Virus record (IMG/VR): IMGVR_UViG_3300046837_000274
Length of the DNA stretch: 64,000 nucleotides
Source: a virus
Reading direction: 5' to 3' (one strand)
Below the pieces are notes generated by a model that did no database searches, was not told the DNA's origin, and saw only the letters and a list, made by a program, of their open reading frames with translations. Numbering within the stretch: position 1 is the stretch's first letter; each line of letters starts with the position of its first letter. Shown piece by piece: positions 1 to 38,134 of this stretch. Position numbers and translations under genes: made by a program.

Positions 1-162
1 CCCCTGCGGTTTCACACCGCGCGTCTCGCCGTAGCCGATGACCGCCTGGGTAAACTCATCGAGCGTGGCGCTCCAGAACTGATCCGGGCTCCACCGAAGC
101 CACCCGAGCCCTTGCTGTAGCAGCCGAAGGTAGGGCAGCGGCTTCGGCTCAGTCAGTTTCCC
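1..162 (-). CDS. tail assembly chaperone -1 frameshift extension (T part of a G/GT-type pair), partial: open to window start
   Basis: The frame -1 relative to 153..512 has no stop from the slippery site to base 1. It reads GKLTEPKPLPYLRLLQQGLGWLRWSPDQFWSATLDEFTQAVIGYGETRGVKPQG. It sits where phages place the frameshifted chaperone, just before the tape measure. Confidence 0.5.
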
Positions 163-512
163 GCGTCGCCCTCGGCATTCTCTTCTTCGGGCTTCTCCGG
201 GGTGTCCACCGTCACGCCGTTGACGAGGAAGTTGACGATGCTTCCGCCGATGCCAGCCGATCCCTCTTCGAAGATCAGTTCCGGGATATCGGCCTCGCGC
301 GGCGCGTGCGGCACACCGCGCAGCATGACGGCGACGATCTGCGCCAGTTCAAGTTGGGTCGCTTCTCCGGCCCCAACGCGGCGCAGCAGCGGCAGGGCGG
401 GACCGAACCGGCTCTCGATCCTCCCCATCTTGTCGAGTGACGGGCGGCAGGCATAGGTGTGCCCGTTGAGCTTAAGCTCAGTTTCCTTGCGGAATTTGTT
501 AGGCGTTGCCAT
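153..512 (-). CDS. phage tail assembly chaperone (GTA g10-like)
   Basis: 119 aa directly after the major tail gene. 'ELKLNGHTYACRPSLDKMGRIESRFGP...LELAQIVAVMLRG' resembles GTA/phage tail chaperones. Acidic C-tail, and a slippery heptamer at its last two codons. Confidence 0.7.
   Translation of the reverse strand: MATPNKFRKETELKLNGHTYACRPSLDKMGRIESRFGPALPLLRRVGAGEATQLELAQIVAVMLRGVPHAPREADIPELIFEEGSAGIGGSIVNFLVNGVTVDTPEKPEEENAEGDAGN
156..162 (-). other. candidate -1 programmed ribosomal frameshift site (slippery heptamer G_GGA_AAC)
   Basis: Minus strand reads GCG GGA AAC TGA. The heptamer is in X_XXY_YYZ phase as the last two sense codons of 153..512. The -1 frame stays open for all 52 remaining codons to base 1. 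Confidence 0.5.
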
Positions 513-521
513 CGATCACCC

Positions 522-977
522 TTAGCCCGGCGTGTAGACAATCTGCCCTGACGACACCAGCGCGGCGGTGAAGGTCTGGGCCTGATTGTAGATGCCGTTG
601 ATAGTGAAAGTTGAGATGGCAAAGAAGCCGGTGAAGATGCCCGCGCCGCTGTAGTTGATGCGATAAGCGAGCAGTGTGCGATCCCGCGCTGACGTCTCCA
701 AGATGATCTGCATCGCGTCGTTGGTGATGATGCCGTCCAGCGCGACTTGCAGTTCCTTGTTCCCGGCGTCCGGCATGAATTCGGTGTAGCCCTGCGACAG
801 CGCGTTGCTGACATCCACCGGGTTGTTATTGTAGGTGACGTTCGTGGTGCGGCAGCCCCCGACCAGCGTGTAGGTCGAGCCGCCGTCAGCCGAAACTTTC
901 AAAAGCGCATCGCGCCCCCGGTAGGCGGTGGTGAAGGTGGCGGGAGTCGTCGGAGCAGCCATTGTTTTTGTCCCCAA
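522..977 (-). CDS. major tail protein (TP901-1 / GTA g9-like family)
   Basis: 151 aa lying between the tail-terminator region and the chaperone. 'ALLKVSADGGSTYTLVGGCRTTNVTYNNNPVDVS' and 'FFAISTFTINGIYNQAQTFTAAL' are typical of this family. Confidence 0.8.
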   Translation of the reverse strand: MGTKTMAAPTTPATFTTAYRGRDALLKVSADGGSTYTLVGGCRTTNVTYNNNPVDVSNALSQGYTEFMPDAGNKELQVALDGIITNDAMQIILETSARDRTLLAYRINYSGAGIFTGFFAISTFTINGIYNQAQTFTAALVSSGQIVYTPG

Positions 978-1010
978 CTAAGAGAAGAGCGCGACGCCGC
1001 ACGCTCGCGG

Positions 1011-1865
1011 TTACGTCCAGTGCTCGTTAAGCCACGCGCCGCCGACATCCGGCTGCTTCGGGTCCCCATACCACATCTCGATTTTTGTTTCCGCAGGGGG
1101 TTTGTTGCCCCGCAGGCCCGGTGGCATCCAGATCACTTCGTGCGGGCGAATCGATTGCATCCAGCGCCACTGGATCCGCTTCGCCGTCAGCACGTCCTGA
1201 AGCAGACCTTGGTCCCCGTGGTAGGGGCCGTTGCCGCTGTCATATCGCGCGATGATGTCGGCAGAGTCCCCGACCATCGCTTCCCAGACACAGGACAGAT
1301 CGACGCGCGTGAACAGGAGCGACGAGTTGACCCAGTTGCGCATCATGTCCCAGGCGATCGCTAGCGGCGCGTCGATGTTCGCCAACCCGTCGATGTTGCC
1401 GCTGATCACCGTGTCGAGGTCGAGATAGAGCAGCGGCCCCTTGAACAGGCCGGGCCGATGAATCTCGATCTTCGACCAGTAGCCCGGCCAGTTCTTCTCC
1501 AGAAAAATGACGTCGATGTCGGCAGTGACCTTGCGCTTTGCATCCGTCAGGCAGACGAAGCGATGCGGCACCGTCAGGTGGCGCTTCACTGCTCGCGCCA
1601 GCTTGCCCACGTAGTCGGCGTGGTCATACTTGCCGCCGCTTTTGTAGACGCATGCCACCGTCAGCATGTCATTGCCGAGCGAGGGAGGGACAAACGGCTC
1701 GGCGAACACAGGCTCTTCCGGGTCTTTCGCTACAATCGCCGTTCCCTCGGATATGAACTTCGCAGCCCAATCGATGGGCAAATCGACGAAGCTTCCCTTG
1801 ACGTAATAGAACGCGCGGCGGTTGGGCATGATCCACGAACAGAGCGCAGTCGCCTCGACCCACAT
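1011..1865 (-). CDS. GT-A-fold glycosyltransferase-like protein (DXD type)
   Basis: 284 aa. 'FVCLTDAK', 'WSKIEIHRPGLFKGPLLYLDLDTVISGNIDGL' (DXD) and 'HGDQGLLQD' are nucleotide-sugar transferase-like. ATG lies one base after the DUF3168 gene stop. Confidence 0.55.
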   Translation of the reverse strand: MWVEATALCSWIMPNRRAFYYVKGSFVDLPIDWAAKFISEGTAIVAKDPEEPVFAEPFVPPSLGNDMLTVACVYKSGGKYDHADYVGKLARAVKRHLTVPHRFVCLTDAKRKVTADIDVIFLEKNWPGYWSKIEIHRPGLFKGPLLYLDLDTVISGNIDGLANIDAPLAIAWDMMRNWVNSSLLFTRVDLSCVWEAMVGDSADIIARYDSGNGPYHGDQGLLQDVLTAKRIQWRWMQSIRPHEVIWMPPGLRGNKPPAETKIEMWYGDPKQPDVGGAWLNEHWT

Positions 1866-1866
1866 G

Positions 1867-2274
1867 CTACGGCACCGTCACAGTTGCGTTGAAGCGAACA
1901 ATCCCATGCCGTGTCATCATGTCAACATCCAGCATCAGATCGGTGGTGGTATACATCATGTCGACGAGATTCATACCGTCGACCGGCAGCACCAGCGGTT
2001 GAAGGTCTAACCGCCTGCGCACTTCCGCCATCAGCGCTCGCGCTTCCGCGTAGCCATTGTAGCGGCTCCAGACGTGAATCTCGACCGTGATCTGCTCGCC
2101 ACGCACGACTGCATGCGACCAGTCGCGCTGCGTTCCTCCCGTGATTTCAATCTGGGGGTAGGCTGCGTTCTCAGGCACCCTGTCATAGACGCCAGCGCCG
2201 ATGGGCGGAACGGCAGTCAGCGCCTGCCAGACCGCCGTCTGCACCGCTGCTCCAGCATCCAGCGTCGCGCTCAC
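1867..2274 (-). CDS. DUF3168-type tail completion / tail terminator protein
   Basis: 135 aa. 'VYDRVPENAAYPQIEITGGTQRDWSH...ITVEIHVWSRYNGYAEARALMAEVRRRL' fits the DUF3168 pattern. Canonical position after the gp10-like gene; ATGA overlap upstream. Confidence 0.7.
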   Translation of the reverse strand: MSATLDAGAAVQTAVWQALTAVPPIGAGVYDRVPENAAYPQIEITGGTQRDWSHAVVRGEQITVEIHVWSRYNGYAEARALMAEVRRRLDLQPLVLPVDGMNLVDMMYTTTDLMLDVDMMTRHGIVRFNATVTVP

Positions 2275-2750
2275 CCGAGTCCTCGCGATGCCAGTTCCAG
2301 CGCGCCCTCGACCGCGTCCTTGTGCAGTTCGATGATCTCAGGCCCCTTCTCGATCAGCGCCGGGAAGATGAACGGCTGCGCTGGGGTCGCTGCGTGCGCG
2401 CGCAGGGGTTTGCCGGTCTTCTTGCTGATCCGCCCACCACCGGAGGTTCCCTTCGTGCCGAACTCGATCAGATGGGCGAAGCGCCCTCCAGCTTTCCACT
2501 GCCGTGGGAACACTTGGCTGGAGAAGCCCACTTGAGCCACCAGTCCGTTCTTGTCGAGTTTGAACCCGATAGCTTTCGCCAGCCTCCCAGTGCGCCTGGG
2601 AACGCGCGCCATCATCGCGTTGTAGAGTTCATTGCCGGACTGGTTGATGGTGTTCTTCAACTGCTGGGTGACGACCTCAGGCAGGCGGTTTAGAAGCGCG
2701 TTGAAACGCTTGTCCAACGTCGCGCGCGAGTGACCTTCTATCAGGCTCAT
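2271..2750 (-). CDS. HK97 gp10-family head-tail attachment protein
   Basis: 159 aa. 'VPRRTGRLAKAIGFKLDKNGLVAQVGF...HLIEFGTKG...AQPFIFPAL' matches the gp10-family pattern. ATGA overlap with the adaptor gene. Confidence 0.75.
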   Translation of the reverse strand: MSLIEGHSRATLDKRFNALLNRLPEVVTQQLKNTINQSGNELYNAMMARVPRRTGRLAKAIGFKLDKNGLVAQVGFSSQVFPRQWKAGGRFAHLIEFGTKGTSGGGRISKKTGKPLRAHAATPAQPFIFPALIEKGPEIIELHKDAVEGALELASRGLG

Positions 2751-3124
2751 ATCGCCACCCCGGCTTCGGCTTCGATGGCCATATACATTTCCAGGCTGGG
2801 CGGCAGATCAACCGAACGGACGTTGAACTGAAGCGAGGCCGGGATGTCCGCGCCGGTCATCGGATCGACGGGCCAGACGATGCGCTGCACTTCACTCAGG
2901 TCGGCGCGGCGGCGCACCACGAACTGGTAGGTAGCGACTGCCGCCAGCCCGCCGCCCTCGACCTGCTCGCCAGGGCCGCCAGGGATAGGCACCACTTGTG
3001 CCCAAATCGTGACGTATGGCTGCCACGTCACTGGCTGCCCGCCCATGCTGTCAGGCACGATCACCTGCTTGTCGATGCGGATTCGCTCGCGCAGCTTTCC
3101 GATCGTGGGGACGTTGAGCGCCAT
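2747..3124 (-). CDS. head-tail adaptor / head closure protein
   Basis: 125 aa. 'KLRERIRIDKQV...GGQPVTWQPYVTIWAQVVPIPGG...YQFVVRRRADL...FNVRSVD' is typical of the phage head-tail joining family. Confidence 0.75.
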   Translation of the reverse strand: MALNVPTIGKLRERIRIDKQVIVPDSMGGQPVTWQPYVTIWAQVVPIPGGPGEQVEGGGLAAVATYQFVVRRRADLSEVQRIVWPVDPMTGADIPASLQFNVRSVDLPPSLEMYMAIEAEAGVAI

Positions 3125-3519
3125 CAGTCTTTGATGTCGAGCACCAGCCCGACGCCCCTGCGGAAGGAGTCAAGCGCTGCTGGAAGCCCGCTCGCGTTCA
3201 GCGGAAAGTGCCCGTCTGCTGCATCGACGAGCGCCGCCACCAGCCCCGCGCAAAGCGCATCGAGCCAGATGCCCGGCTCGTCGCTGCGCTCCGTCTGCGA
3301 AGGACTCTGCTCGATCACGTTCCAACTGTTGAGAAAAAGCGTGTTGTCTGGCGCATCGCTTTGCTCGACGCCTGAGACGCGCATTCCATTGTCGAGCGCC
3401 AGCGTGGCGACCCCGGCGGGCGAGATAGCAGCGATTGCGCCGAAGTAGTCGTCTCCGCATTCTGAGCGATAGACGACGCGAGCACCGGCTGCTGGCTGTT
3501 GCTTTTTAGTTTCCGACAT
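3124..3519 (-). CDS. hypothetical protein
   Basis: 131-aa ORF in the late operon. It overlaps both neighbours by 1 and 14 nt. No recognisable motif. Confidence 0.45.
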   Translation of the reverse strand: MSETKKQQPAAGARVVYRSECGDDYFGAIAAISPAGVATLALDNGMRVSGVEQSDAPDNTLFLNSWNVIEQSPSQTERSDEPGIWLDALCAGLVAALVDAADGHFPLNASGLPAALDSFRRGVGLVLDIKD

Positions 3520-4138
3520 ACAGCCACCACCACCAGTTCACGACCGGATGCACCGGGCGGAACCACACGACGTCGGGGCCGATGTGATAGCCAGGATAGA
3601 GGTCGTCGACCGCCGCGCGCACGCCGCTCCAGTTGATGTCGTGCCCGAGCAGCCAGCCGTTCGCACGCACCTTCGGCAGCCACGCGATGATGTCGGCGCG
3701 GCACGCGCCCTCGCTGTGGTCAGCGTCGATGAACACGAAGTCCAGGCTTCCGTCAGGCACCTTCTCGGCGGCCTCGACGCTTAGCGTTTCGAACATCGCC
3801 CAGCGGTCTTTGAACGGAGCGAGATTAGCCTCCGCAAGTATGCGCAGCGCGTCATGGTCCCAGCACATAAAATCGTCCGGCCCGGCGTGGTCGAAGAACA
3901 CCCTCCGTGCATCGACCCCGATCATGTGCAGTTCTGGATGTTTGCCCAGCAGGTAGGACGATGTGCGACCTTCTGCGACGCCGATCTCGGCCCCCATCTT
4001 CCAGTCGAAGTGCTCGATCAGGAACGACAGGAAGTGCTTGCGCTCCCACCATGGCGGAACCGAGCGCGGCGGTATCGACTGCGGAACCAGAGGCGGGATG
4101 TCGAAGCCTGGAATGGGCTTCGGGAATTGCGTCTGCAT
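3506..4138 (-). CDS. class I SAM-dependent methyltransferase (Methyltransf_24 / O-MTase-like)
   Basis: 210 aa. Motif I 'GAEIGVAEGRTSSYL', then 'MIGVDA', 'LDFVFIDADHS' and 'NGWLLGHD'. Its ATG shares one base with the connector gene stop. Confidence 0.7.
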   Translation of the reverse strand: MQTQFPKPIPGFDIPPLVPQSIPPRSVPPWWERKHFLSFLIEHFDWKMGAEIGVAEGRTSSYLLGKHPELHMIGVDARRVFFDHAGPDDFMCWDHDALRILAEANLAPFKDRWAMFETLSVEAAEKVPDGSLDFVFIDADHSEGACRADIIAWLPKVRANGWLLGHDINWSGVRAAVDDLYPGYHIGPDVVWFRPVHPVVNWWWWLYVGN

Positions 4139-4827
4139 CAGAGCACCCGATACTTGTCGACGAGCGCATCGAAGCCGAGCGGCTTGATCGCAATCGGGCT
4201 GCGGTTCTCATAGTAGATGGCCAGCATCATCTTCACGGCGGTCACCAACGCGGAGGGCACCGGATCGGGGTCGTAACCGCACGTATAGTCGACCGTCACC
4301 ACGCCGTGCGCACCGTAGTAGGGAACCGGCCATGACAGCCCGAGCGCAGGCTCCAGGCGCGTCAGCACGCCGTCGTCGGTGGCGCGATACTCGTCCTCCG
4401 TCATCGTCTGCTCGATGCCGCTGGTGTCGACGTAGCGCAACGAGTCAATCGAGATGACCGGCGCGCGCAGCAGCACGAACGACGGGCGTCCCCCGCCGTG
4501 GCCGCGATCCCACAGGAACGACCCCTCGCCGGGATAGTAGCCGTAACCCCAGGCGTATCCGTAGCTGTATTGCGCGCCCATGGAGTGGCGCTGCGCAGTG
4601 CCTTCGAAGCTGTCGCGCACATCCGTCACTGAAGCGGTGACGAGCGTCAGGCCGGTTTCCTGCTCGACGAACTGGCGCGCGGCAGTGATCCACTCGACGA
4701 TCAGCCCGTCGTCTGGATGCGAAGGAGGACTTCCGCCGACGTCGAGACGAAGGTGCTGGCGCGCTTCGTCGAGCGTGACCGGCTCTTCGCCTACAGTGCG
4801 CGCGCGCGCTGTCTTCGTGACCAACAT
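4138..4827 (-). CDS. gp6-like head-tail connector protein
   Basis: Start reset to ATG 4827 ('MLVTKTARARTVGEEPVTLDEARQHLRLD...DDGLIVEWITAARQFVEQETG'). C-terminal 'VDYTCGYDPDPVPSALVTAVKMMLAIYYENR' is typical of this family. TGATG overlap with the upstream small ORF. Confidence 0.7.
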   Translation of the reverse strand: MLVTKTARARTVGEEPVTLDEARQHLRLDVGGSPPSHPDDGLIVEWITAARQFVEQETGLTLVTASVTDVRDSFEGTAQRHSMGAQYSYGYAWGYGYYPGEGSFLWDRGHGGGRPSFVLLRAPVISIDSLRYVDTSGIEQTMTEDEYRATDDGVLTRLEPALGLSWPVPYYGAHGVVTVDYTCGYDPDPVPSALVTAVKMMLAIYYENRSPIAIKPLGFDALVDKYRVL

Positions 4828-4988
4828 CACAAATATCCCGTCCCCAGCAGCACGAGCAGGATGATGATCAACAGGAAGCTGGTGCCACTCGGATAGTAGC
4901 CCCACTCGTAGTCTGCCATGCGTGGCGACGTCGGCAGTAACCCGAGCGCGACCAAGAGCAGGGCGAGGATGAGAATGCTTACCAGCAC
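4827..4988 (-). CDS. small two-TM membrane protein, DUF3309-like
   Basis: 53 aa from GTG 4988: VLVSILILALLLVALGLLPTSPRMADYEWGYYPSGTSFLLIIILLVLLGTGYL. The layout (TM, 'W.Y.PSG', TM) recalls DUF3309. Start codon uncertain. Confidence 0.4.
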   Translation of the reverse strand: MLVSILILALLLVALGLLPTSPRMADYEWGYYPSGTSFLLIIILLVLLGTGYL

Positions 4989-5716
4989 GGCGCGTCCTCC
5001 CGGTGAAACGCGAACGAGCCTATCCCCTCGCGTCCCGCCCTTGTCTCCGCATCGTTCGATTCGACCAGCGCCCAGCCGAGCCGTGCCATTAGGCGCGTCA
5101 GACCGGCTTCGGTGAAATACCAGTAATGCTCGTCCCGGCGATAGTGTTTCGAACGCAGCACGTGCGCCGAGCCTTCGAAGATCGGAACGCTGATGAAGAC
5201 GAACTGGCGCACGCGCGCGAGCAGCGACGGGAAGTCGGCGATGTGCTCGATGCTGTCCCAAAATGTGGCGGCATCTACGCCGTGCAGATACGGATCACGG
5301 AAGCAGTTGTGCTTGATCAGCCAGCGAACTGCGGCGGGGTTGATGTCGAAGCCCTTCGAATCGTCACCGATAGCCTCGATGAAGGATCCGCAGCCGATGC
5401 CGACATCGACGACCGCGCCCGGCCAGTGCCGCCGCACGAGCGAGACGCGCTGACGGTTCAAGAGCCTGCCGCGCGCCGTCTTTGCGTAGCCGACATATTT
5501 CGCGAAATAGGCTTCGTCATATACCAGTGTGATGTCGGGCACCGGATAGAAGCCAATGTCGAACTCGACGAACCATTGCAGGCTGTCTTCAGTGCGCAGC
5601 AGCCTGATCAGAGATTGATCGATCCACGCCACGCTTGCCACTGCTGCATCAGATCGGGAATATCCTTCCGGCACTGGTGATGTTGATCGCTGCAAAGGCA
5701 AAGCGTCTCCGGCCAT
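4979..5716 (-). CDS. class I SAM-dependent methyltransferase
   Basis: Motif I 'VVDVGIGCGSFIEAI', 'GFDINPAAV' and 'FWDSIEHIADFPSLL'. Start uncertain: GTG at 5641 or 5632 would shorten the 109-nt overlap with the upstream gene. Confidence 0.65.
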   Translation of the reverse strand: MAGDALPLQRSTSPVPEGYSRSDAAVASVAWIDQSLIRLLRTEDSLQWFVEFDIGFYPVPDITLVYDEAYFAKYVGYAKTARGRLLNRQRVSLVRRHWPGAVVDVGIGCGSFIEAIGDDSKGFDINPAAVRWLIKHNCFRDPYLHGVDAATFWDSIEHIADFPSLLARVRQFVFISVPIFEGSAHVLRSKHYRRDEHYWYFTEAGLTRLMARLGWALVESNDAETRAGREGIGSFAFHREDAPCW

Positions 5717-6483
5717 GCAAACCCCACTAACCTCGCGTCCATGCGCGGATCGATGATCTTGTCGGGAGCGTTAGCCCCGCCGTTTCCGCCGAGCACGATG
5801 AAGGCAGGAGTGTGCGCTGCTATGGCTGCTGGAACAATCCATCCGACGCCGCCCACCAGCAGCGCTGCATTCTGCACGGATGCAAGCAGTTGGCGCGTCG
5901 AGAGTTCGCCGTTTGTCAGCGCGTAGTTGTGCGGGGGCATCTCGCCCTCGATCCACTCTTCCCCCGCCGACAAGTCGCAGACGACCACCACCGCGTAGCC
6001 GCGCGCTTTCAAATCGCCCGAGATCTGCGCGACGTATTCCGGTCGAGGGTTGCGCGACGGGTTCGGCCAGTCCTTGCGCACGACGCACGGTCGTACGATC
6101 ACCAGCGGGGAGTCAGACGTGTCGAACGGGCAGGGGCCCATGTCCGGGAGGTCCCAGAGCGGTCGCGCGACCGGCTCCATCTGGTGCGCCATCGCTTGAT
6201 AGACGTTGCCCTGGGAGAACGCCTCCGCGCTGTAGTAGAGGGTGCGCGTCTCGGCGACCGCAGGGCGGGGCGACCAGCGTGAGGGAAGCTGGCGCTTCAT
6301 CTGCGCCGCCTGCACCCGCAGCGTCGTCGGAGGCTCGATGAACCTGACCGGGAGGTCCTCGTAGAGTTCAGGCCACGGCGTCTCGCAATAGACGTCACGC
6401 TTCAGCGCCTGATCGCGGATCACCGGGCGGATGTAGATCGCGTCTCCCAGCCCGTAGGGACAGCGCAGGACGAGCGGCGTCAA
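5608..6483 (-). CDS. GT-B glycosyltransferase, family 9 (heptosyltransferase)-like
   Basis: Start reset to TTG 6483 (TTGA overlap with the upstream stop). The first 114 aa of the track ORF are Arg/Ala junk. 'LRCPYGLGDAIYIRP' and 'STRQLLASVQNAALLVGGVGWIVPAAIAAHTPAFIVLGG' fit the GT9 pattern. Confidence 0.55.
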   Translation of the reverse strand: MTPLVLRCPYGLGDAIYIRPVIRDQALKRDVYCETPWPELYEDLPVRFIEPPTTLRVQAAQMKRQLPSRWSPRPAVAETRTLYYSAEAFSQGNVYQAMAHQMEPVARPLWDLPDMGPCPFDTSDSPLVIVRPCVVRKDWPNPSRNPRPEYVAQISGDLKARGYAVVVVCDLSAGEEWIEGEMPPHNYALTNGELSTRQLLASVQNAALLVGGVGWIVPAAIAAHTPAFIVLGGNGGANAPDKIIDPRMDARLVGFAWPETLCLCSDQHHQCRKDIPDLMQQWQAWRGSINL

Positions 6484-7310
6484 GCGGCCTGCTCGACCCC
6501 GCGCGACAGCAGCGCCTGCATGCGCAGCAGCCGGTCGCGCTCGCCGTGGAAGGAACGCACGACGGGCCGGTCGGACTCCATGTGCTTCTCGACCCAATTG
6601 AAGCGGTTCGGCAGGATCGTCAGCAGGTTGCGCCAACGCCGCTGATTCATCAGTTCGATGAGCGCTCCCTGGTCCTCCCATTTCATATGCGGCGGCATCG
6701 CTTGCCACGCGGCTACGAAGGCGCGCACCTCGTCGGAGGACGCCAGCCACACCACCCCCGTGTTGAGATGTCGCGGCGTCGTTGGGCTGTCCCAGCACTC
6801 GCAGAGGCCGACCCCCCACGTGCACGTGCTGAACAGGTCCACGCTCGCGTCAACGATGATGCTGTCGGCGTCGAGCCAGAGCACCTGTTCGAAGCCGCGA
6901 TCCAGCGCCCAGCCCATCATTTCGACTTTGCGCCAGTGCAGGGGGCGCACGACTTTCTTCGGGCGGTCCTCGCGCTGCGCGATGAACTCGACTCCCCAGG
7001 CGGCGCAGTAGCGCGCGTGCACGTCTGCCGTCAGATCGAGCATGCGCACGAAGTCAGCGCCCGCAGCGAGTTGCAGCAGCGCGCGCTTGCCAGCCCTTGG
7101 GCGCGGTCTGGGACGCGGTGGAGGCGACCCGTCAGCGGGCGCATCAGCCATCACCTTGATCCGTGTCCCGTCTCCTACCGCCGGGATAGCCAGCCCAGAC
7201 AGCTTCAGTTCCCGCGCCCTGTTTTCGGGTGCGAAAAACTCCATTCCCGGATAGACCTGACCTTCACGGTCCCAGTTGATCCAGGGCACGAGCGCAACCA
7301 TGCGGATCAT
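6480..7310 (-). CDS. GT-A glycosyltransferase-like protein (GT8/GT34-like, DXD)
   Basis: 276 aa. A ~50-aa N-domain and a Pro-rich linker ('PPPRPRPRPR') are followed by 'VLWLDADSIIVD', 'LNTGVVWLAS' and 'WEDQGALIEL'. ATGA overlap upstream. Confidence 0.6.
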   Translation of the reverse strand: MIRMVALVPWINWDREGQVYPGMEFFAPENRARELKLSGLAIPAVGDGTRIKVMADAPADGSPPPRPRPRPRAGKRALLQLAAGADFVRMLDLTADVHARYCAAWGVEFIAQREDRPKKVVRPLHWRKVEMMGWALDRGFEQVLWLDADSIIVDASVDLFSTCTWGVGLCECWDSPTTPRHLNTGVVWLASSDEVRAFVAAWQAMPPHMKWEDQGALIELMNQRRWRNLLTILPNRFNWVEKHMESDRPVVRSFHGERDRLLRMQALLSRGVEQAA

Positions 7311-7633
7311 TGTGGCGGCCTCGGATGGGGGCGCGGCTCCGGTGGCTTGGCGTATTCGTCCAGTATATCCCGGTCCTGCTGCTCGCGGTTCAACAGTCGC
7401 TCCACCACCGAGATCGGCACCTGTTGCAAGCAGGACGTAATGATCGGACCGAGGTTACGGTCGCGCCGATCGGCCTGCACGTTGAGGAACCAGAGCATGC
7501 CGACCACGTAGATCGAGTTCAACAGCACCAGAACCATGAACTGCGCTGGCAGGGTGTCGATCAGCTTCGACGCGGTTCGACTGACCGCCCCGACCGTGCC
7601 GGTGCCGTGCCCGTTCGGCGGCGGCTCAGCCAT
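7307..7633 (-). CDS. membrane protein, hypothetical (holin-like candidate)
   Basis: 108 aa with one strong TM ('FMVLVLLNSIYVVGMLWFL') and a charged, Pro-rich C-tail. Confidence 0.45.
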   Translation of the reverse strand: MAEPPPNGHGTGTVGAVSRTASKLIDTLPAQFMVLVLLNSIYVVGMLWFLNVQADRRDRNLGPIITSCLQQVPISVVERLLNREQQDRDILDEYAKPPEPRPHPRPPQ

Positions 7634-7929: not shown

Positions 7930-8132
7930 GCGGCCTCGCGCCCAGCCATAAGCCGCAGGATCGCCACAAGATCCGCTCTCAATTGGTCGGCACCGCCGAA
8001 CGAGACGCGGAATGCCTGCTGCTTGCCATCTTCCGAGACAACGGCGATCTGCACGTAGGAGCCGTGATAATCCCGCTCGCCCATGCCGTTGATCGGGCCG
8101 CTTGCGCTGACATCGGCCTTGGGAGGGATCAC
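7926..8132 (-). CDS. hypothetical protein
   Basis: 68 aa from GTG 8132 (GTGA overlap with the 8129 stop). Contains 'MGERDYHGSYVQIAVVSEDGKQQAFRVSFGG'. Confidence 0.4.
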   Translation of the reverse strand: MIPPKADVSASGPINGMGERDYHGSYVQIAVVSEDGKQQAFRVSFGGADQLRADLVAILRLMAGREAA

Positions 8133-8515
8133 GCCTTCTCCGTCTGCGTTGCCGTCTCGGCGATGTAGAACTGGTCCGCATCGTCGCACGCCTGACCCTG
8201 GCCGCCCTTGAAGCGGATCACGCGCTCATGCACGGGCTGGCCCACCCACTGGTCGACGACCTTCAGACCCTCGTCGGTCTGCTCTAACAGGATAGCGATG
8301 TGGCTGGATCCGTCCGTGGCGTTGGCATAGAGCCCGTCGTCGTCGAAGGTCGCGATGATGGTGCCGCGCGGAAAGCCCGAACCCTTTGCCGGGTTGCCAC
8401 GGCGCAGCACCGAGGAATGCGGCACGCCAGCCACCGTCTGCACGTGCACCATGCAGTGACCGTTGCCGACCACTTCGCCAAGGCGCGCGTGCGTGTCAGG
8501 AGCGACAAAAGACAT
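8129..8515 (-). CDS. papain-fold (CHAP/NlpC-P60-like, BPSL0067-like) putative peptidoglycan hydrolase
   Basis: 128 aa. Cys...His arrangement: 'GNGHCMVHVQ', 'PRGTIIATFDDDGLYANATDGSSHIAILL', 'VVDQWVGQPVHERVIRF'. Family assignment is from memory only. Confidence 0.5.
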   Translation of the reverse strand: MSFVAPDTHARLGEVVGNGHCMVHVQTVAGVPHSSVLRRGNPAKGSGFPRGTIIATFDDDGLYANATDGSSHIAILLEQTDEGLKVVDQWVGQPVHERVIRFKGGQGQACDDADQFYIAETATQTEKA

Positions 8516-9647: not shown

Positions 9648-10859
9648 TTAGGCGAGCGTGCCGTAGGTGAACGCCTTCGGACGATAGACCGCCAGCGCCA
9701 CCCGCTCTTCCGCGCGGATCGTAATCATGTTGCGCACGAAGTTGTCCTGATCTTCGGTCGAGATGAGGACTTCAATTGCCATGCGGTCGAACAACTGCGC
9801 ACCCATGCGGAACGCACCAGCGAGGAAGTGGCTGACCGTCATAGCCTGCGTGTCGACGACCGGCAGGTTCCAGAGCCGCTTGCCGATGGCTCCGGTGGGA
9901 TCGCCGACGATGTAGCGGTTCTGCGCATCCTTGGTTAGCTCGATCTTCGCCCAATCGGTCGGGTGGAGAACGAAACCAGAAGCCGGGTAGAGCGCGAGCG
10001 TGGCTTGCAGCGCCGCCAGCCGCAGGGTGTCGATGTTCTGCAACGCGGTCGGCGTGAACGCTGCCGAGTAGGCCGTCGCCTGCGGCACGATGCCGAACAG
10101 GTGCTGGCCGGTGCCGTCGCCGTAGAGGATTTCGCCCTCTTCGACATATTGCAGACCCCAGCGCAGACGTCCGTCGATCGTCGATTGCAGCATCGGCGCG
10201 TCGTCGAGAATCTGCCGTGACGCCTTCATGAAGTGCGCGATGGTGCGAACCGGCGTGCTCTTCAGATCGAAGGTGATGTTCGACTGCGGCTTCAGCGCCC
10301 CTTCCGAGACCACCGCTGCCTTGTTCGACGCCGCCGACTGAGGATCGTCCGTTTCGACTGCATACTCGATGGCGTTGCTGGTGGTCGAACCCGGCATCAC
10401 GAGGTCACGGACGACCAAAGGGCGGAGCGGAGCCTGCACCATCCCCACGCGTTCCGGAATCACCAACGACGTCGCCGCCGAGACGCCGGTGCCCCAAGTC
10501 GCGCTGCCGCTCATGATGTCCTTCAGTTCGATAGTCACGCGCGCCTGCCCGTTCTTCCGCTGCAAGAGCGCTTTGACTTCCTCGTTCTCGACCACAAGCT
10601 GGCCGATGCTCTTGCTCTGCGCAGGGCCATCACCAGGGCGACGGGCCATCTTCTGCTCGATCTCGCCGACGCGCGCGCCAAGCTCGTTCATCGCCGACAG
10701 CGCCTTGTCGGCGTTCGCTTTCGTCTCGGCGGTGACGTCGCCGAGGGCCTTCATCTCGGCCTGCGCCTTCTCCGCGAACTTTTTGACTTCGTCGGTCGCG
10801 TTCTTCAGGTCGACGGCAAGCTGCTTGAGTTCAGTTGTGCCGGTATCGTCGAGTGGCAT
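9648..10859 (-). CDS. major capsid protein, HK97 family
   Basis: 403 aa. N-terminal coiled delta-domain-like region, then typical HK97-fold blocks ('GTGVSAATSLVIPE', 'VRDLVMPGSTTSNAIEYAVE', 'GDPTGAIGKRLWNLPVVDTQAM'). Follows the protease gene. Confidence 0.9.
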   Translation of the reverse strand: MPLDDTGTTELKQLAVDLKNATDEVKKFAEKAQAEMKALGDVTAETKANADKALSAMNELGARVGEIEQKMARRPGDGPAQSKSIGQLVVENEEVKALLQRKNGQARVTIELKDIMSGSATWGTGVSAATSLVIPERVGMVQAPLRPLVVRDLVMPGSTTSNAIEYAVETDDPQSAASNKAAVVSEGALKPQSNITFDLKSTPVRTIAHFMKASRQILDDAPMLQSTIDGRLRWGLQYVEEGEILYGDGTGQHLFGIVPQATAYSAAFTPTALQNIDTLRLAALQATLALYPASGFVLHPTDWAKIELTKDAQNRYIVGDPTGAIGKRLWNLPVVDTQAMTVSHFLAGAFRMGAQLFDRMAIEVLISTEDQDNFVRNMITIRAEERVALAVYRPKAFTYGTLA

Positions 10860-15088: not shown

Positions 15089-15271
15089 TCACGGCGTCTG
15101 ATCGTCGTTGCGGTGCATGAAACGCTTCACCTCATCAACGTCTGACGGCTCTACTCCCTGCGAACGCAGGTAGGCTTCTGCCTGCTCGCCACGCAGGCGT
15201 AGCTCTTCGGCCACTGCATCAGTGCGCGCGCGACGCTGCGCGGCGTAAGCCGCCTGCCTTGGGTCTTCCAT
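15089..15271 (-). CDS. hypothetical protein
   Basis: 60-aa charged helical ORF between terS and terL. Confidence 0.4.
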   Translation of the reverse strand: MEDPRQAAYAAQRRARTDAVAEELRLRGEQAEAYLRSQGVEPSDVDEVKRFMHRNDDQTP

Positions 15272-15798
15272 CAGTGCATCACTGGGCGCGGCGGCGCGTT
15301 CGCAACGTATTCGGCCAGCGGGACGTGCTTGCGCTTGCCCTGCTTCGTGTCGGCATGCGGCAGCTTGACCTCGGGTCCGAGCGGCTGCGCGTAAGCGCGT
15401 GCTCGTGCTGTCGGCGAGAAGCCCAACTCCCCTGCGGCCTTCAGCATGATCATCGCCTGCTTGTTCATGATGCCGAGATAGAGCGACGGAAACGGCATCG
15501 GCATGCCGCGCTGGCGCATCAGCAGCGTTTGCGTCGTGCGCAGCAGTTCCGCAGCGCGGCGGTGGGTGTCTTCAGCCACCACCCAGACCGCCAGCACGCC
15601 TCTGTCCAGGCGGCGCAGCAGCCCCGGCGGTGCGCTTGCCAGCGCGTGCCTCCAGCCGTCGACCTGTTCTTCCGTCAGCCAGTGCGGAGGGTCTTCAAGT
15701 GAGCCTGGAGCCTGCGGCTCGGCGTCGTTCATGCGCCGATGCCCGGTCTTGCCGTGCAGCTTCGCCAGCGCGGTCGGCTTCGGCTTTCGCCCTTTCAT
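15271..15798 (-). CDS. terS: terminase small subunit, P27 family
   Basis: 175 aa. 'MKGRKPKPTALAKLHG...PPHWLTEEQVDGWRHAL' is the P27-type N-terminus. Lies directly upstream of terL. Confidence 0.8.
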   Translation of the reverse strand: MKGRKPKPTALAKLHGKTGHRRMNDAEPQAPGSLEDPPHWLTEEQVDGWRHALASAPPGLLRRLDRGVLAVWVVAEDTHRRAAELLRTTQTLLMRQRGMPMPFPSLYLGIMNKQAMIMLKAAGELGFSPTARARAYAQPLGPEVKLPHADTKQGKRKHVPLAEYVANAPPRPVMH

Positions 15799-16666
15799 CC
15801 CTCATCTCCTTCAGATTGGTCAGTCGCATTCCGAATTCGTTGATTCTGTCATCGACGCTGACCCCTTCTCGGAGCACTGGCCGATTGTGACGAAACGGTC
15901 GGTAGTCAACCTGATGGTGCCAGCGTCCATAGCGCGTCACCAGCTTCGTCACGTCGGGGCGGAGCGCCACCAGCATCTGGCTTTTCGGCAGCGTGCCACC
16001 GACGTAAATCGTGTCGGTGTTACCTCCCTTCATGTGCAAGGTGCGAACTTTTTTTTGCAAAAAGGCATTGAAAAGCACCGTGCACCAGCGGGCTTTGAGC
16101 ATGCGCAGACTCAAGTCCGTGTCTTCATTGTAACGGCCACGCCACCGAAACGGCACGTCATTGCGAATCAAATTGCATGAATAAATACGGGTATTGAACG
16201 TCAGCGGAGGGCGCACTCCCCGGCGCGGAGCGAACGACTCATAGTTCGGTCCTGCCATCGCGATGTTGCGATAACGCAGGCAGAAGTCCTCCACGGCATA
16301 GAACATCGTTCCGTCAGCGACCGGAACTTTGGCGTTCCGATGCCAGCGATAGAAGCGCTGAATGTTGTCATCGACTGTCCAATGCCACTCTGCGCCCTGT
16401 CTGATCGCGTGCTCCCAAGCGAAATTGCGTGCCGGTCCTGATCCTCGCCCTTTCCCCACGCCACGCGCGTCACAGGTGTCATACGCAAGCTGAAAGGCGG
16501 GGTCGAGGGTTAGAACCTCTCCCTTGATCACCTTGCGGTAGGCATCACGCTCCTGCTCTTCGACAATGATGTAGTAAGGCACTCGCAGTTCATCGAATGC
16601 GCGAGCCGTCAGGCGGCTTTCCCACCTTCCCTTACTGACAATGTAGACGGGAAAACGGGGGTTCAT
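15695..16666 (-). CDS. GT-A-like glycosyltransferase, paralog 2 (possibly TET/JBP-associated GT / GREB1-like family)
   Basis: 323 aa, alignable over its full length to 16663..17526. Shared blocks 'VYIVSKGR', 'GSGPARNFAW', 'WHWTVDDNI', 'NEDTDLSLRMLKA', 'GGNTD'. The 3' end overlaps terS by 104 nt. Confidence 0.45.
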   Translation of the reverse strand: MNPRFPVYIVSKGRWESRLTARAFDELRVPYYIIVEEQERDAYRKVIKGEVLTLDPAFQLAYDTCDARGVGKGRGSGPARNFAWEHAIRQGAEWHWTVDDNIQRFYRWHRNAKVPVADGTMFYAVEDFCLRYRNIAMAGPNYESFAPRRGVRPPLTFNTRIYSCNLIRNDVPFRWRGRYNEDTDLSLRMLKARWCTVLFNAFLQKKVRTLHMKGGNTDTIYVGGTLPKSQMLVALRPDVTKLVTRYGRWHHQVDYRPFRHNRPVLREGVSVDDRINEFGMRLTNLKEMRDERAKAEADRAGEAARQDRASAHERRRAAGSRLT

Positions 16667-17526
16667 GCCGCTATCAGCCGCAGGCCATGTTCATCCGCGT
16701 TAGAAGGGATCACCAGTCCGTCTCGCAGCACCGGCTTTATGTGAGCGAACGCGCGGTAATCCACATAGTGATGCACCCTGCCGAAGCGCTGCGTGATCCG
16801 CGTCACGTCCGGGTGCAACGCTACGATCATACGGCTCTTCGGCACCGTGCCGCCTCGGTATAGCTCGTCTGTGTTGCCGCCGCGCATCGTCAGCGTCGTT
16901 TGTTTCGCCTGAAGGAAGGCGTTGAAGAGCACCGTGCACCATGACGCTTTCAGCATCCGCAGCGACAGGTCGGTGTCCTCGTTGAAGCGCGCGCGCCAGC
17001 GAAATGGCAGATCGGTTCGAATCAGGTTGCAGGAGTAGATGCGGGTGTTGATCGTGAACGGAGGAATAAGCTGTCTGCGCTTGGCGAAGAAGACGTAATT
17101 GGGCCCTACCATGCCGACGTTCTGATAGCGCTCGGCGAACTCCTCCATGAGCCGAAAGCACGAGCCGTCTGCCAGCGGAATCTTCAGATTGTGCGCGAGC
17201 CGGTAGAATGCCCTGATGTTGTCATCGACTGTCCAATGCCACTTCGCTCCAGCCGCTTTGGCGTGATCCCATGCGAAGTTGCGAGCAGGTCCAGAGCCGC
17301 GCGTCTTGTTTCCTCCATGCGCGTCGCAGGTGTCGTAGTCACGCTGATATGCCGGATCGAGTACCAGTATCCTGCCCGGGTCGATTACGGCGGCGTATAG
17401 GTCGAATTCCTGCCGCTCGACGATGATCCGAAACGGCACCTGCATCCGTTCCAGCGCTTTGACTGTCAACCGGCTGTCCGCTCGGCCCTTGCTCACGATG
17501 TAGATCGGGTGGTGCGGGTTGGTCAT
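16663..17526 (-). CDS. GT-A-like glycosyltransferase, paralog 1
   Basis: Start reset to ATG 17526 ('MTNPHHPIYIVSKGR' aligns with the paralog's N-terminus). 287 aa. ATGA overlap with paralog 2. Confidence 0.45.
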   Translation of the reverse strand: MTNPHHPIYIVSKGRADSRLTVKALERMQVPFRIIVERQEFDLYAAVIDPGRILVLDPAYQRDYDTCDAHGGNKTRGSGPARNFAWDHAKAAGAKWHWTVDDNIRAFYRLAHNLKIPLADGSCFRLMEEFAERYQNVGMVGPNYVFFAKRRQLIPPFTINTRIYSCNLIRTDLPFRWRARFNEDTDLSLRMLKASWCTVLFNAFLQAKQTTLTMRGGNTDELYRGGTVPKSRMIVALHPDVTRITQRFGRVHHYVDYRAFAHIKPVLRDGLVIPSNADEHGLRLIAA

Positions 17527-18235
17527 CGACTTTCCATCGCTGGTTAGCTTGCGCGACACGCGGCTCGGCAGGATGCCAGAGATATTTCGTCTTGTCAGTT
17601 ACCGACTGACCCATGCGATTCGCGAAGTCGTCCACGCCGCTCTGGTCTTTGAAGTGCACGACGATCGAGCGCCACGCCATCAGATCGTCCTGCGAGAACG
17701 CGGGCATGCCGCCCCACTCGCGATTCGGATCGAAGTCGCGATCCGGCTCCAGCAGGTGCACCAGTTCAGCCTCGCCGAAGCCGAGCAGCGTCACGTCGAA
17801 CGAAGACGCTGCCAGTTCGCCCACTTCCTTGATCAGTAGCTCCTGCGACCAGTCGGCGTTCATCGCCAGCTTGTTGTCGGCGATCACGTAAGCCCTGATC
17901 TGCTCGGGCGACCAGCCGCGCGCGACCATCACCGGTATGTCCGGCAGGTTCAGCAGCGCCGCTGCCCGTGTTCGCGCGTGCCCCGCGATCAGCACCCCCT
18001 GCTCGTCTACCAGCACCGGCATCGTCCAGCCCCACTGGCGGATGCTGTTCGCAAGCTGCTCGATCTGCTCGGGACTGTGCAGGCGCGCGTTGGCCAGATA
18101 CGGCTTCAGCGACGCAATCGGGCGACGCTCGATCTTGTCGGCAGGCCACGCTCGGGGCTGTCGCTCTGCTGACGCAGGGGGAGCAGGCTTCCCGGCAGGG
18201 GGTCGAGGGGGACGCTTCGCTGCTTTGCGTGCCAT
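17339..18235 (-). CDS. ParB/Srx-fold N-terminal domain protein
   Basis: 298 aa. 'IASLKPYLANARLHSPEQIEQLANSIRQWGWTMPVLVDEQGVLIAGHARTRAA', and 'GWSPEQIRAYVIADNKL'. The last ~60 codons run 188 nt into the next gene in another frame. Confidence 0.7.
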   Translation of the reverse strand: MARKAAKRPPRPPAGKPAPPASAERQPRAWPADKIERRPIASLKPYLANARLHSPEQIEQLANSIRQWGWTMPVLVDEQGVLIAGHARTRAAALLNLPDIPVMVARGWSPEQIRAYVIADNKLAMNADWSQELLIKEVGELAASSFDVTLLGFGEAELVHLLEPDRDFDPNREWGGMPAFSQDDLMAWRSIVVHFKDQSGVDDFANRMGQSVTDKTKYLWHPAEPRVAQANQRWKVDDQPAPPDLHREQGPSGQPVDSQSAGTDAGAVSDHRRAAGIRPIRRRNRPGQDTGTRSGISA

Positions 18236-27096: not shown

Positions 27097-27639
27097 TTAG
27101 CTGGCGTGATTTCTATTCCGGTCGCCAGCATGTCCGGCATCGCTCGGGCGCTTCGCAAGCTGCGGGCGGCCCGTGCGTCGGTAGCGCGCGCGCTCGACAT
27201 GAGACGGCGCTTTGTCGTCATAAGATTCTGCGACCGCGTCGCGTAGCGCGCGATGCGCCGCTTTCGACAGGCCGAAGTCTTCGTAACCCTGCTTGATCAC
27301 GTTCAGGTAGTAGGCTGACGGCGGGAAGATGCCGGTCGAGTTCATCACGTAAATCAGCATCTCTGACCCGTGCTCTGGAAACGCGTTGATGGGGACATAC
27401 TCTTTGCGATACAGCCCGCCGCGCACCCCTTCGTAGAGGTCGAGTTCCTTTTCGCACTCGGACGTGATCGCCCAGATACCGCCGTGGCAGACTGCGCCCG
27501 CTTCGGCGATGCAGTCGGCGACGCCCCGGAACACGAGACGACGTCCGCGCAGTTTCATCCGCGCCAGAGGCACTGCGTTCGGGCAACGCCGCTCCATCTG
27601 CTCCATGTTCAAGTTGGAGCCGTAAGCAAACATCAGCAT
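27097..27639 (-). CDS. gamma-glutamylcyclotransferase (GGCT/AIG2-like) family protein
   Basis: 180 aa. 'MLMFAYGSNLNMEQMERRCP', 'GGIWAI', and 'LDLYEGVRGGLYRKEYV' (candidate catalytic Glu context). Basic C-tail. Confidence 0.7.
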   Translation of the reverse strand: MLMFAYGSNLNMEQMERRCPNAVPLARMKLRGRRLVFRGVADCIAEAGAVCHGGIWAITSECEKELDLYEGVRGGLYRKEYVPINAFPEHGSEMLIYVMNSTGIFPPSAYYLNVIKQGYEDFGLSKAAHRALRDAVAESYDDKAPSHVERARYRRTGRPQLAKRPSDAGHAGDRNRNHAS

Positions 27640-27640
27640 G

Positions 27641-27877
27641 TCAGGATCCCTTGTACTCGACGCCCATGGCAGTCATGCCGAGAGCGAGTGCGGAACAGGC
27701 GAGGCCGATATACTTCGGCACGTCGTGCTGGCTGTTCTCCCAGCGCGTCCACGCGCCCCGCGAGCAGCCGAGCGCTTTGCATGCGTCGCGCTGCGAGTAG
27801 CCCATGCGCTCGCGCCACGCAGCCAGCGTCGCCCCCGCGAGGGGGCTTGCGCTGTTCGTCTCGATCTTGTTGGCCAT
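27641..27877 (-). CDS. XRE-family HTH regulator
   Basis: Start reset to ATG 27877 behind AGGAGA with a 7-nt spacer. 'LAAWRERMGYSQRDACKALGCSRGAWTRWENSQHDVP'. Confidence 0.65.
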   Translation of the reverse strand: MANKIETNSASPLAGATLAAWRERMGYSQRDACKALGCSRGAWTRWENSQHDVPKYIGLACSALALGMTAMGVEYKGS

Positions 27878-27903
27878 GATGCAGTCTCCTGTGGTTGCAG
27901 TGA

Positions 27904-31730: not shown

Positions 31731-31731
<1 letters not shown>
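31519..31731 (+). CDS. hypothetical protein
   Basis: 70-aa ORF behind cassette copy B. Confidence 0.45.
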
Positions 31732-33731
<2,000 letters not shown>

Positions 33732-37946: not shown

Positions 37947-38134
37947 GGGTTTTCCAACTGGTAGAGTTTGACCCGCAGCAGATCGAGCACTTCCTCAAGG
38001 TTGTTCACTTCGATGCGGATGGTGAGCGGCATCGACTCCGCGTCTTCTTTCACCACTGCGATCAGGTGGCCGATGTCGTCCATGTGCGCTCTGAGCACGT
38101 TGATTCGTTCCGGTGCTGTCGTCGCCTCGTTCAT
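37943..38134 (-). CDS. hypothetical small protein
   Basis: 63 aa from ATG 38134 (ATGA overlap with the methyltransferase stop). Confidence 0.4.
   Translation of the reverse strand: MNEATTAPERINVLRAHMDDIGHLIAVVKEDAESMPLTIRIEVNNLEEVLDLLRVKLYQLENP

Follow-up and report, generated by a model that had tools for sequence, protein, structure and literature searches.

When genes for sugar-transferring and methylating enzymes lie among the head and tail genes of a phage, the question is which molecule those enzymes modify. Such genes are found in the late operon of the phage behind IMG/VR record IMGVR_UViG_3300046837_000274, of which a stretch of 64,000 nucleotides (the window) was analysed: three glycosyltransferase (GT) genes and two genes for class I S-adenosylmethionine (SAM) methyltransferases are placed between its capsid and tail tube genes (Table 1). 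Sequence and predicted structure suggest that virion glycosylation is the most likely function of this cassette. In the reading favoured here, which is given a probability of about one half, two cytoplasmic, late-expressed modules would glycosylate virion proteins and methylate the glycan. Module 1 is head-proximal (4979-7310) and comprises a GT34-like GT-A enzyme, a TibC-like GT-B enzyme, and a Methyltransf_23 enzyme; module 2 is tail-proximal and comprises a GT8-like GT-A enzyme and a Methyltransf_24 enzyme.

The five enzyme open reading frames (ORFs) are on the minus strand at the coordinates assigned to them by an earlier inspection of the letters and ORF translations (the sequence-only reading), and their GC content at third codon positions (GC3, 0.73-0.82) is coding-like. 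They form part of a continuous minus-strand late operon that encodes, in order, the small terminase, large terminase, portal, S78 protease, HK97-type capsid protein, eight small ORFs, the enzyme region, tail tube, and chaperone. The tight embedding of the enzymes within this operon, as claimed earlier, was confirmed: the structural genes between the enzymes overlap by 1-14 nt, and from 7633 to 1011 the genes are joined throughout by stop/start overlaps or by gaps of no more than 1 nt, so that coupled translation would be possible. Direct reading verified the ATGA junction at 7307-7310. The TTGA junction at 6480-6483 is likewise present, and an independent gene caller run on the source contig also picks the TTG start (291 aa). 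The start of the Methyltransf_24 gene shares one base, at 4138, with the connector stop (TGATG), and a one-base spacer precedes the GT8-like start (TAG-C-ATG at 1865-1867). Two further junction claims need amendment. The TGATG at 4825-4829 exists but couples the DUF3309 ORF (4827-4988), not the methyltransferase, to the connector, and the methyltransferase ORF ending at 4979 is real but is more likely to start at GTG 5632 (217 aa) than at ATG 5716. A scan of an 18.5-kb stretch for promoters and terminators gave no signal above shuffle expectation and no promoter-like site inside the enzyme genes; the sole promoter-like site of the stretch, a count below shuffle expectation, is at 2056-2084, inside the tail-completion gene. 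The only sizeable intergenic gap in the operon (48 nt) holds a hairpin at 987-1006 that may act as an attenuator or RNA-stability element.

All five enzyme-fold assignments of the sequence-only reading were borne out by Pfam gathering scores, by family profiles searched against the PDB, or by AlphaFold2 (AF2) models compared using Foldseek. Single-sequence phmmer searches of each GT and methyltransferase against the PDB gave nothing useful, and none of the five enzymes matched NCBIfam. The GT-B enzyme (5608-6483) belongs to a family with 594 database homologs, many of them from Bradyrhizobium, Mesorhizobium, Phenylobacterium, and Acetobacteraceae. In a Foldseek search with its AF2 model (predicted local distance difference test score, pLDDT, of 95), the top 22 PDB matches are all chains of TibC (E 1.4e-9 to 7e-8; query TM-score, TMq, 0.59-0.64), followed by WaaF (1.9e-8), a Veillonella GT9 enzyme, and WaaC (1e-5). 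Matches to structures in BFVD include proteins named 'Aah/TibC' and 'RfaF'. The best structural match is thus a protein O-glycosyltransferase, ahead of the lipopolysaccharide (LPS) enzymes WaaF and WaaC. The protein has no Pfam or NCBIfam match, and its family profile retrieved nothing from PDB sequences even at E = 10; therefore, its classification rests on the AF2 model and Foldseek. Similarly, no sequence match to the CAZy GT9 or Pfam Glyco_transf_9 family model was found, and the likeness to GT9 is at fold level only.

TibC is an iron-containing protein O-heptosyltransferase of enterotoxigenic E. coli, in which an N-terminal beta-barrel (residues 1-97) is required for activity and four Cys residues in the C-lobe (C339, C342, C358, and C370) form an iron finger (PMC4358343). 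Besides its structural resemblance, the phage GT-B enzyme shares with TibC a GxGD motif at the start of the catalytic domain (G-L-G-D14, invariant in the family). Near the C-terminus, its family also has an invariant, shorter Cys3His cluster (C262/C264/H269/C271), which falls roughly where TibC carries its four-Cys finger once the 97-residue barrel is subtracted, a correspondence by position and not by residue-level structural alignment. In contrast to the 406-aa TibC, the phage enzyme has only 291 aa, starts at once with the catalytic domain (first strand and GLGD motif), and shows no detectable sequence similarity to TibC. On its predicted structure, it would be a TibC-like core and, without the N-terminal barrel, not a member of the bacterial autotransporter heptosyltransferases (BAHT; TibC/AAH). 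Typical of BAHT enzymes are a dodecameric ring, ADP-heptose as donor, and O-heptosylation of Ser in a beta-helical acceptor.

The other two GTs have GT-A folds, and the DxD motifs previously quoted for them are real and invariant in each family. The GT34-like enzyme (6480-7310) belongs to a rare family of 20 clusters with invariant D147/D149. The profile of this family matches XXT1 (GT34; 9e-4), the GT domain of PBCV-1 A64R (2p6w; 2e-3), and glycogenin-2 in the PDB, and Pfam recognises Nucleotid_trans in 13 of the 20 homologs (best 3.8e-6) and GT34 in 10 of the 20; the window protein alone scores 18.5 bits against a Pfam cut-off of 22. The GT8-like enzyme (1011-1865), in whose family D149-L-D151 is invariant, has a family profile that matches Skp1 alpha-GalT (3.6e-7), glycogenin (6e-7), and LgtC (2e-3), and a Foldseek search with its AF2 model (pLDDT 92.8) retrieved BoGT6a, glycogenin, LgtC, GlyE, and LARGE1 at about 1e-8. 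Fold, DxD motif, and profile similarity are those of a GT8-type retaining GT-A enzyme; searched alone, the window protein has no Pfam GT8 match. One database homolog of this enzyme (P0168, 477 aa) has a PF01973 domain besides the GT8-like region, and PF01973 is taken by us to be the DUF115/Maf-type family. Several of these GT-A matches (glycogenin, Skp1 GalT, GlyE, and PBCV-1 A64R) act on proteins or viral capsids. The two methyltransferases exceed their Pfam cut-offs (Table 1) and have the glycine-rich motif I of class I SAM enzymes ('VVDVGIGCGSF' and 'GAEIGVAEG').

Both GT-A enzymes carry additional N-terminal segments. Residues 1-60 of the GT34-like enzyme form a module (the N-module) with homologs that are stand-alone ORFs of 60-110 aa, located between the capsid and GT-B genes in about 40 related loci (tblastn 1e-6 to 1e-15) and often overlapping the GT-B start with their stop. 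A hidden Markov model (HMM) built from 27 of these small ORFs matches residues 3-60 of the window protein at 7e-23. The GT34-like enzyme is therefore a fusion of the N-module to a GT-A domain. The N-module family, with only 20 clusters of stand-alone or fused members, has no counterpart in Pfam or PHROG and consists of a conserved core of about 45 residues followed by a variable Pro-, Asp-, or Lys-rich tail. The shortest homologs of the GT-A domain do not have the module, and one of them is in a plain bacterial chromosomal context. The N-domain of the GT8-like enzyme is absent from homologs of about 210 aa and is present only in copies that precede a tail tube gene. The sequence-only reading had noted a shared N-terminal motif in the two DXD enzymes and had proposed a common docking module. 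The letters of the motif are present, but homology is weakly supported (hhalign P = 0.006, colinear, 40 columns), and the N-module HMM, searched against all six-frame ORFs of the window, matches 6480-7310 only and not the N-terminus of 1011-1865. As such, both enzymes have gained N-terminal modules, of which that of 6480-7310 is genuinely mobile, but their common ancestry is unproven and the alignment is suggestive only. On an unrelated phage contig (L008 4570-8768, ENA contig_29463), a distant GT34-like homolog lies beside Methyltransf_21 and Methyltransf_23 genes and is another cluster of GT and methyltransferase genes.

The sequence-only reading had considered the arrangement to be without a described proteobacterial equivalent; that it is peculiar to this phage is not supported, as the same GT-B and methyltransferase insertion is present in the long-sequenced Pseudomonas phages D3 and PAJU2. 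By tblastn, homologs of both proteins at about 40% identity were found in D3 (orf12/orf13), PAJU2 (gp11/gp12), PMG1, and others, and in D3 and PAJU2 the pair is interleaved as in the window, between head-closure and HK97-gp10-like genes. Several GenBank entries already name the two genes 'GT9' or 'GTB-type glycosyltransferase' and 'methyltransferase'. Relatives of the GT-B enzyme were found on 347 IMG/VR contigs, and 80 loci were examined. In 76 of these, the next gene after that for GT-B is Methyltransf_23, and the remaining four are cut by contig ends; the Methyltransf_23 enzyme is the obligate partner of the TibC-like GT. Among the 56 loci with at least 4 kb of upstream sequence, recognisable head genes precede the cassette on its own strand in 52, and opposite-strand head genes occur in none. 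At least three morphogenesis layouts that differ from one another accommodate the cassette: window-like (portal, protease, capsid, small ORF, GT-B, methyltransferase), PAJU2-like (protease-capsid fusion, portal, other genes, 'sialyltransferase', GT-B, methyltransferase), and D3-like (capsid, 'sialyltransferase', connector, GT-B, methyltransferase, head closure). In a Bradyrhizobium barranii prophage (CP086136.1), which has a cultured host, the order is connector, Gp77, a 132-aa ORF, GT-B, methyltransferase, and then head completion. The 'sialyltransferase' of the PAJU2- and D3-type phages (phrog_4603, annotated as 'alpha-2,3-sialyltransferase', ~150-230 aa, GGPS motif) is their usual upstream partner of the GT-B/methyltransferase pair and is Maf/GT42-like, and many module 1 loci have it. 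Maf proteins are flagellin (protein) glycosyltransferases.

Module 2 is inherited independently of module 1. GT8-like homologs with the N-domain are immediately upstream of a Phage_tail_2 tail tube gene in 13/13 loci. In the reverse search, starting from the tail tube protein, every one of 21 loci of the matching clade has the GT directly upstream, in contrast to none of 44 loci with more distant tail tube proteins. These GT8-like/tail-tube loci span window-like, PAJU2-like, and lambda-like head modules, and always have a methyltransferase gene nearby, either Methyltransf_24 after the connector or head completion gene or Methyltransf_21 directly upstream of the GT. The Methyltransf_24 gene takes this position in loci that have the GT8-like gene but not the TibC-like cassette, and the window's Methyltransf_24 (3506-4138) therefore belongs with 1011-1865. 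Shorter GT8-like homologs that have no N-domain occur here and there in other phages, and such methyltransferases often accompany them. Both modules occur together only in the closest relatives of the window phage (L010-L012, L091, and L093). The combination of enzymes had earlier been taken to imply one multi-sugar, methylated glycan, which does not follow from two separately inherited modules. The synteny survey nevertheless favours the virion-related part of that proposal, in that, among the loci examined, the cassettes recur only inside morphogenesis operons.

From the observed folds, catalytic motifs, gene junctions, and conserved synteny, the following acceptor proteins, sugars, and N-terminal-module roles may be proposed. 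In module 1, the TibC-like enzyme would attach the initial sugar to a Ser/Thr residue of a virion protein, the GT34/A64R-like enzyme would extend that sugar, with its fused N-module docking it to the substrate or to the GT-B complex, and the Methyltransf_23 enzyme would O-methylate the glycan. In module 2, the candidate acceptor is the Phage_tail_2 tail tube protein, whose gene (522-962) comes next downstream and which would be glycosylated and methylated by the GT8-like and Methyltransf_24 enzymes. The methyltransferases would in each case cap or modify sugars. Five observations point to virion proteins as the acceptors: the enzyme genes overlap virion genes at stop and start codons; they lie exclusively in morphogenesis operons, whose architectures are unrelated; the folds have affinities to protein glycosyltransferases (TibC, glycogenin, Skp1 GalT, GlyE, A64R, and, in D3-type cassettes, the Maf-like partners); the GT8-like gene is strictly linked to a single clade of tail tube proteins; and a module encoded elsewhere beside the capsid gene is fused to another GT.

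To our knowledge, mycobacteriophages (Che8, Corndog, and Myrna type) provide the only experimentally established phage precedent. Methyltransferases occur in some of their glycosylation clusters. The glycans of their virions are carried by capsid and tail tube subunits, at the C-termini (Freeman 2023, cited in PMC12619734). As in the window, the mycobacteriophage GTs are encoded with structural genes, and the GTs of the window phage are both co-located and co-oriented with its virion genes. Moreover, the two mycobacteriophage targets, capsid and tail tube, are paralleled by one GT locked to the tail tube gene and another set placed after the capsid gene. In contrast, the window phage and its relatives have proteobacterial hosts, and the proposed system would consist of a TibC-like GT-B enzyme and of GT34/A64R-like and GT8-like GT-A enzymes with added N-terminal modules. 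In addition, its enzymes are interleaved with head-tail joining genes, whereas those of mycobacteriophages follow the tail genes. Relative to known phage virion glycosylation, the different enzyme families and the putative modular targeting domains would be new. A second comparison is with A064R of the chlorovirus PBCV-1, which combines two GT domains with a methyltransferase domain in capsid glycan synthesis. There a virus uses a GT-A enzyme and a methyltransferase on its own capsid glycan, as might be the case here, and the GT34-like family profile matches the A64R GT domain; however, PBCV-1 is a giant virus of eukaryotes, its glycans are N-linked, and its three domains are in one polypeptide, and the likeness is marginal and confined to the GT-A core. 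The GT-B and Methyltransf_23 proteins of D3 (orf12/orf13) and PAJU2 (gp11/gp12) are true homologs, but these phages have the GT42/Maf-like 'sialyltransferase' (orf7 and gp10) in place of the N-module-GT34 fusion and no GT8-like or Methyltransf_24 module. PmgQ of phage P1 and HdmD of phage P7 (phrog_1962) are distantly homologous to the GT8-like catalytic domain, at 27% identity. The P1 gene is named as a putative morphogenetic function, but PmgQ and HdmD do not have the N-terminal domain and their genes do not adjoin a tail tube gene.

Several points weigh against virion glycosylation. The GT-B family is without the N-terminal beta-barrel of TibC, and neither TibC nor Pfam GT9 is matched at the sequence level. 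A C-terminal Thr/Pro tail, the candidate feature of GT-linked tail tube proteins, does not set them cleanly apart from unlinked ones. Co-inheritance with neighbouring structural genes could partly be simple linkage, and that the acceptor is in the virion is something we infer from sequence. Two TET-associated glycosyltransferase (TAGT) genes (15695-17559) indicate that the phage also glycosylates something else, probably DNA. Finally, two small membrane proteins in the cluster could hint at an envelope-directed process.

The last point bears on an alternative in which the target of the enzymes is a glycoconjugate of the host surface (LPS core or O-antigen, exopolysaccharide (EPS), flagellin, or pilin), whose modification would block superinfection or the trapping of virions on debris by receptor masking from the late operon. 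This is unlikely, although it fares best among the alternatives. Phage GTs commonly alter host serotype, according to the summary in PMC12619734. WaaF and WaaC, which are LPS heptosyltransferases, share the GT-B fold, and the short GT34-like homolog in an ordinary bacterial chromosomal context would fit a host substrate. However, neither a promoter nor a terminator of their own is detectable for these genes and they overlap structural genes at stop and start codons, which counts against expression in lysogens, and LPS made late in the lytic cycle would have little time to reach the surface. The surveyed cassettes are never beside lysogeny or conversion genes, and the known serotype-conversion genes of D3 lie elsewhere in its genome. 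A host target would also hardly explain why the GT8-like gene is strictly linked to one clade of tail tube proteins.

Alternatively, the glycan could be built on the small N-module protein, at its Pro-rich tail, or on some other non-structural phage protein, with a decoration protein, accessory protein, or non-virion factor as the product. In window-like phages the GT-B gene always has the N-module ORF as its upstream neighbour, the stop of the one overlapping the start of the other, and this ORF encodes a Pro/Ser/Thr- or Asp-rich tail. Decoration proteins are typically encoded right after the capsid gene, as this ORF is, and GT8 relatives such as glycogenin self-glycosylate. However, the tails are highly variable, many being poly-Asp with few Ser/Thr; D3/PAJU2-type cassettes have the GT42/Maf-like gene instead of an N-module; and an acceptor fused to the GT that extends its glycan would be unusual. 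This explanation is thus rather improbable, and if the N-module protein is a capsid decoration it overlaps with virion glycosylation as proposed above.

The least probable explanation, that the enzymes extend and methylate glycans on hypermodified phage DNA, following the action of the two TAGT paralogs encoded on the same strand, draws on known multi-GT DNA hypermodification (Pyle 2024, as cited in PMC12619734), but it is disfavoured to the point of being very doubtful by the presence of the cassette at the same structural position in D3, PAJU2, and hundreds of contigs, with no TAGT among the features annotated or called in the D3, PAJU2, and Bradyrhizobium stretches, by the separate location of the TAGT genes and the lack of a DNA glycosyltransferase among the best structural matches of the GTs, by the expectation that DNA-modifying enzymes would be encoded with replication genes and not between tail completion and tail tube genes, and by the finding of no TET/JBP, cytosine C5-methyltransferase, or hydroxymethylase among the 40 window proteins scanned, which leaves the source of a modified base for the TAGT genes unexplained.

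Virion glycosylation may extend beyond this phage. It is tentatively suggested, with confidence short of even, that proteobacterial siphophages including D3 carry a widespread and unrecognised virion O-glycosylation machinery, in which a minimal TibC-like GT acts with an obligate sugar methyltransferase and small docking domains steer further GTs to the capsid or tail tube, and that virion glycan coats are a general phage trait. With both modules and a fused GT, the window has a more elaborate version than any other seen of a cassette whose core was previously unnoticed in well-known phages, and a literature search found no functional study of these genes, of D3 orf12/13, of phage TibC-like enzymes, or of virion glycosylation in proteobacterial phages. 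If the suggestion is correct, the surface chemistry, immune recognition, adsorption, stability, and environmental stickiness of many proteobacterial phages would depend on a phage-made methylated glycan. The affected phages would include Pseudomonas phages considered for therapy as well as rhizobial prophages, and such a glycan is a possibility ignored in current structural and therapeutic work. The enzymes could also serve glycoengineering as compact protein GTs: the TibC-like enzyme, of 291 aa, does without the beta-barrel, and the GT-A enzymes would offer plug-in targeting domains. Cassette relatives in cultured systems (D3 orf12/13, PAJU2 gp10-12, and the B. barranii prophage) make the hypothesis testable.

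Table 1. Coordinates of the cassette genes, flanking late genes, and phrog_4603 partner proteins; positions refer to the window unless another contig is named.
Feature	Position	Strand	Size	Support or remark
Tail tube chaperone	153-512	-		
Major tail (tube) protein, Phage_tail_2	522-962	-	146 aa	Pfam 5e-18
GC-rich hairpin with weak T tract	987-1006	-		Between GT8-like and tail tube genes; total of such sites not above shuffle expectation
GT8-like enzyme: GT-A retaining domain, GT8/GT6-like, DLD motif	1011-1667	-		phrog_1962 6.5e-32; profile against PDB; Foldseek
GT8-like enzyme: beta4-alpha-beta N-domain and Pro-rich linker	1668-1865	-	Residues 1-66	AF2 pLDDT 83-95
Tail completion gp17/DUF3168	1867-2274	-		Pfam
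HK97 gp10-like	2271-2750	-		Pfam
Head completion protein	2747-3124	-		Pfam
131-aa protein	3124-3519	-	131 aa	Beside Methyltransf_24 gene; conserved there only in closest relatives
Class I SAM methyltransferase, Methyltransf_24	3506-4138	-		Pfam 1.2e-14, 55.4 bits against cut-off 26.3
gp6-like head-tail connector	4138-4827	-	229 aa	Phage_connect_1 3.5e-5; phrog_442
Two-helix membrane protein, DUF3309	4827-4988	-	53 aa	PF11752 on source contig; coupled to connector gene
Class I SAM methyltransferase, Methyltransf_23	4979-5632	-	217 aa	Pfam 2.2e-10, 41 bits against cut-off 27; phrog_6564 3e-65; start overlaps GT-B stop
GT-B glycosyltransferase, TibC/GT9-like fold	5608-6483	-	291 aa	phrog_6804 5e-80; TTG start
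GT34-like enzyme: linker and GT-A domain (DxD, retaining-type), GT34/PBCV-1 A64R-like	6480-7130	-		Profile matches; invariant DxD
GT34-like enzyme: N-module, then Pro/Arg linker	7131-7310	-	Residues 1-60 of 276 aa	Homologous to stand-alone ORFs
Single-pass membrane protein	7307-7633	-	108 aa	Stop overlaps GT34-like start (ATGA)
HK97-type capsid protein	9648-10859	-		
Small terminase	15271-15798	-		Late operon
TAGT paralogs, tandem	15695-16666, 16663-17559	-		PF20691 2e-41 and 1e-39; directly upstream of small terminase gene, ~8 kb upstream of enzyme region
phrog_4603 protein, PAJU2 gp10	L002 7450-8019			
phrog_4603 protein, D3 orf7	L001 5951-6409			
phrog_4603 proteins, ~25 IMG/VR loci	e.g. 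L056 5526-6191			

The window covers about 64 kb of a phage genome of roughly 67.7 kb with a GC content of about 64%. The tape-measure gene leaves the window at its left edge and its C-terminal part is found again at 62061-63989, indicating that the genome is circularly permuted. The same phage has been recovered repeatedly in metagenomes (JGI 3300053085 contig Ga0495619_0000093 and several Logan assemblies). A megablast search with 16 kb against 50,697 sequenced phages found no nucleotide-level relative, and the phage is therefore without a close cultured relative.

The structural genes flanking the enzymes are supported by Pfam matches to Phage_connect_1, Phage_HCP, HK97-gp10_like, Tail_completion_gp17, Phage_tail_2, Phage_TAC_11, Phage_capsid, and Peptidase_S78. 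A C-terminal acceptor signature was considered for the tail tube proteins and rejected: those linked to a GT mostly end in T-x-P-x-T or Y-x-P-G, and some unlinked ones are similar. The 131-aa ORF has no credible match in Pfam or PHROG, and a beta-lactamase identity was rejected because its NCBIfam matches are weak and far under the cut-off. The two small membrane proteins are embedded in an otherwise cytoplasmic operon of structural proteins and enzymes, with stop/start overlaps to their neighbours. The larger, of 108 aa, has no Pfam or PHROG match and is conserved at 90% in the closest relatives (L010/L011); whether it is part of the glycosylation system is uncertain. Among the eight small ORFs between the capsid gene and the GTs is one for a BPSL0067-family protein (8129-8515, minus strand; NCBIfam 3e-16), which also occurs in a related contig (L040).

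Elsewhere in the window, a protein with a ParB_N domain (17339-18235, minus strand; 2.8e-6) is encoded by an ORF that overlaps the upstream TAGT ORF by about 220 nt, and one of the two starts is therefore probably later than listed. An Amidoligase_2 gene (27097-28917, minus strand; 8.5e-39, with a DUF3489 tail) lies beside a gamma-glutamyl cyclotransferase/AIG2-like gene (about 1e-8), and the two are a phage amidoligase pair. The early region encodes an SNF2 helicase (31731-33731) and an MT-A70 adenine methyltransferase (38131-39183; 3e-22), together with a RecT-domain protein (45788-47722) that, at 644 aa, is unusually long. Just downstream of the tail fibre region, a 222-aa protein (49703-50371, minus strand) has a C-terminal PEP-CTERM sorting motif (1.6e-5), which suggests a host with an exosortase and EPS system.

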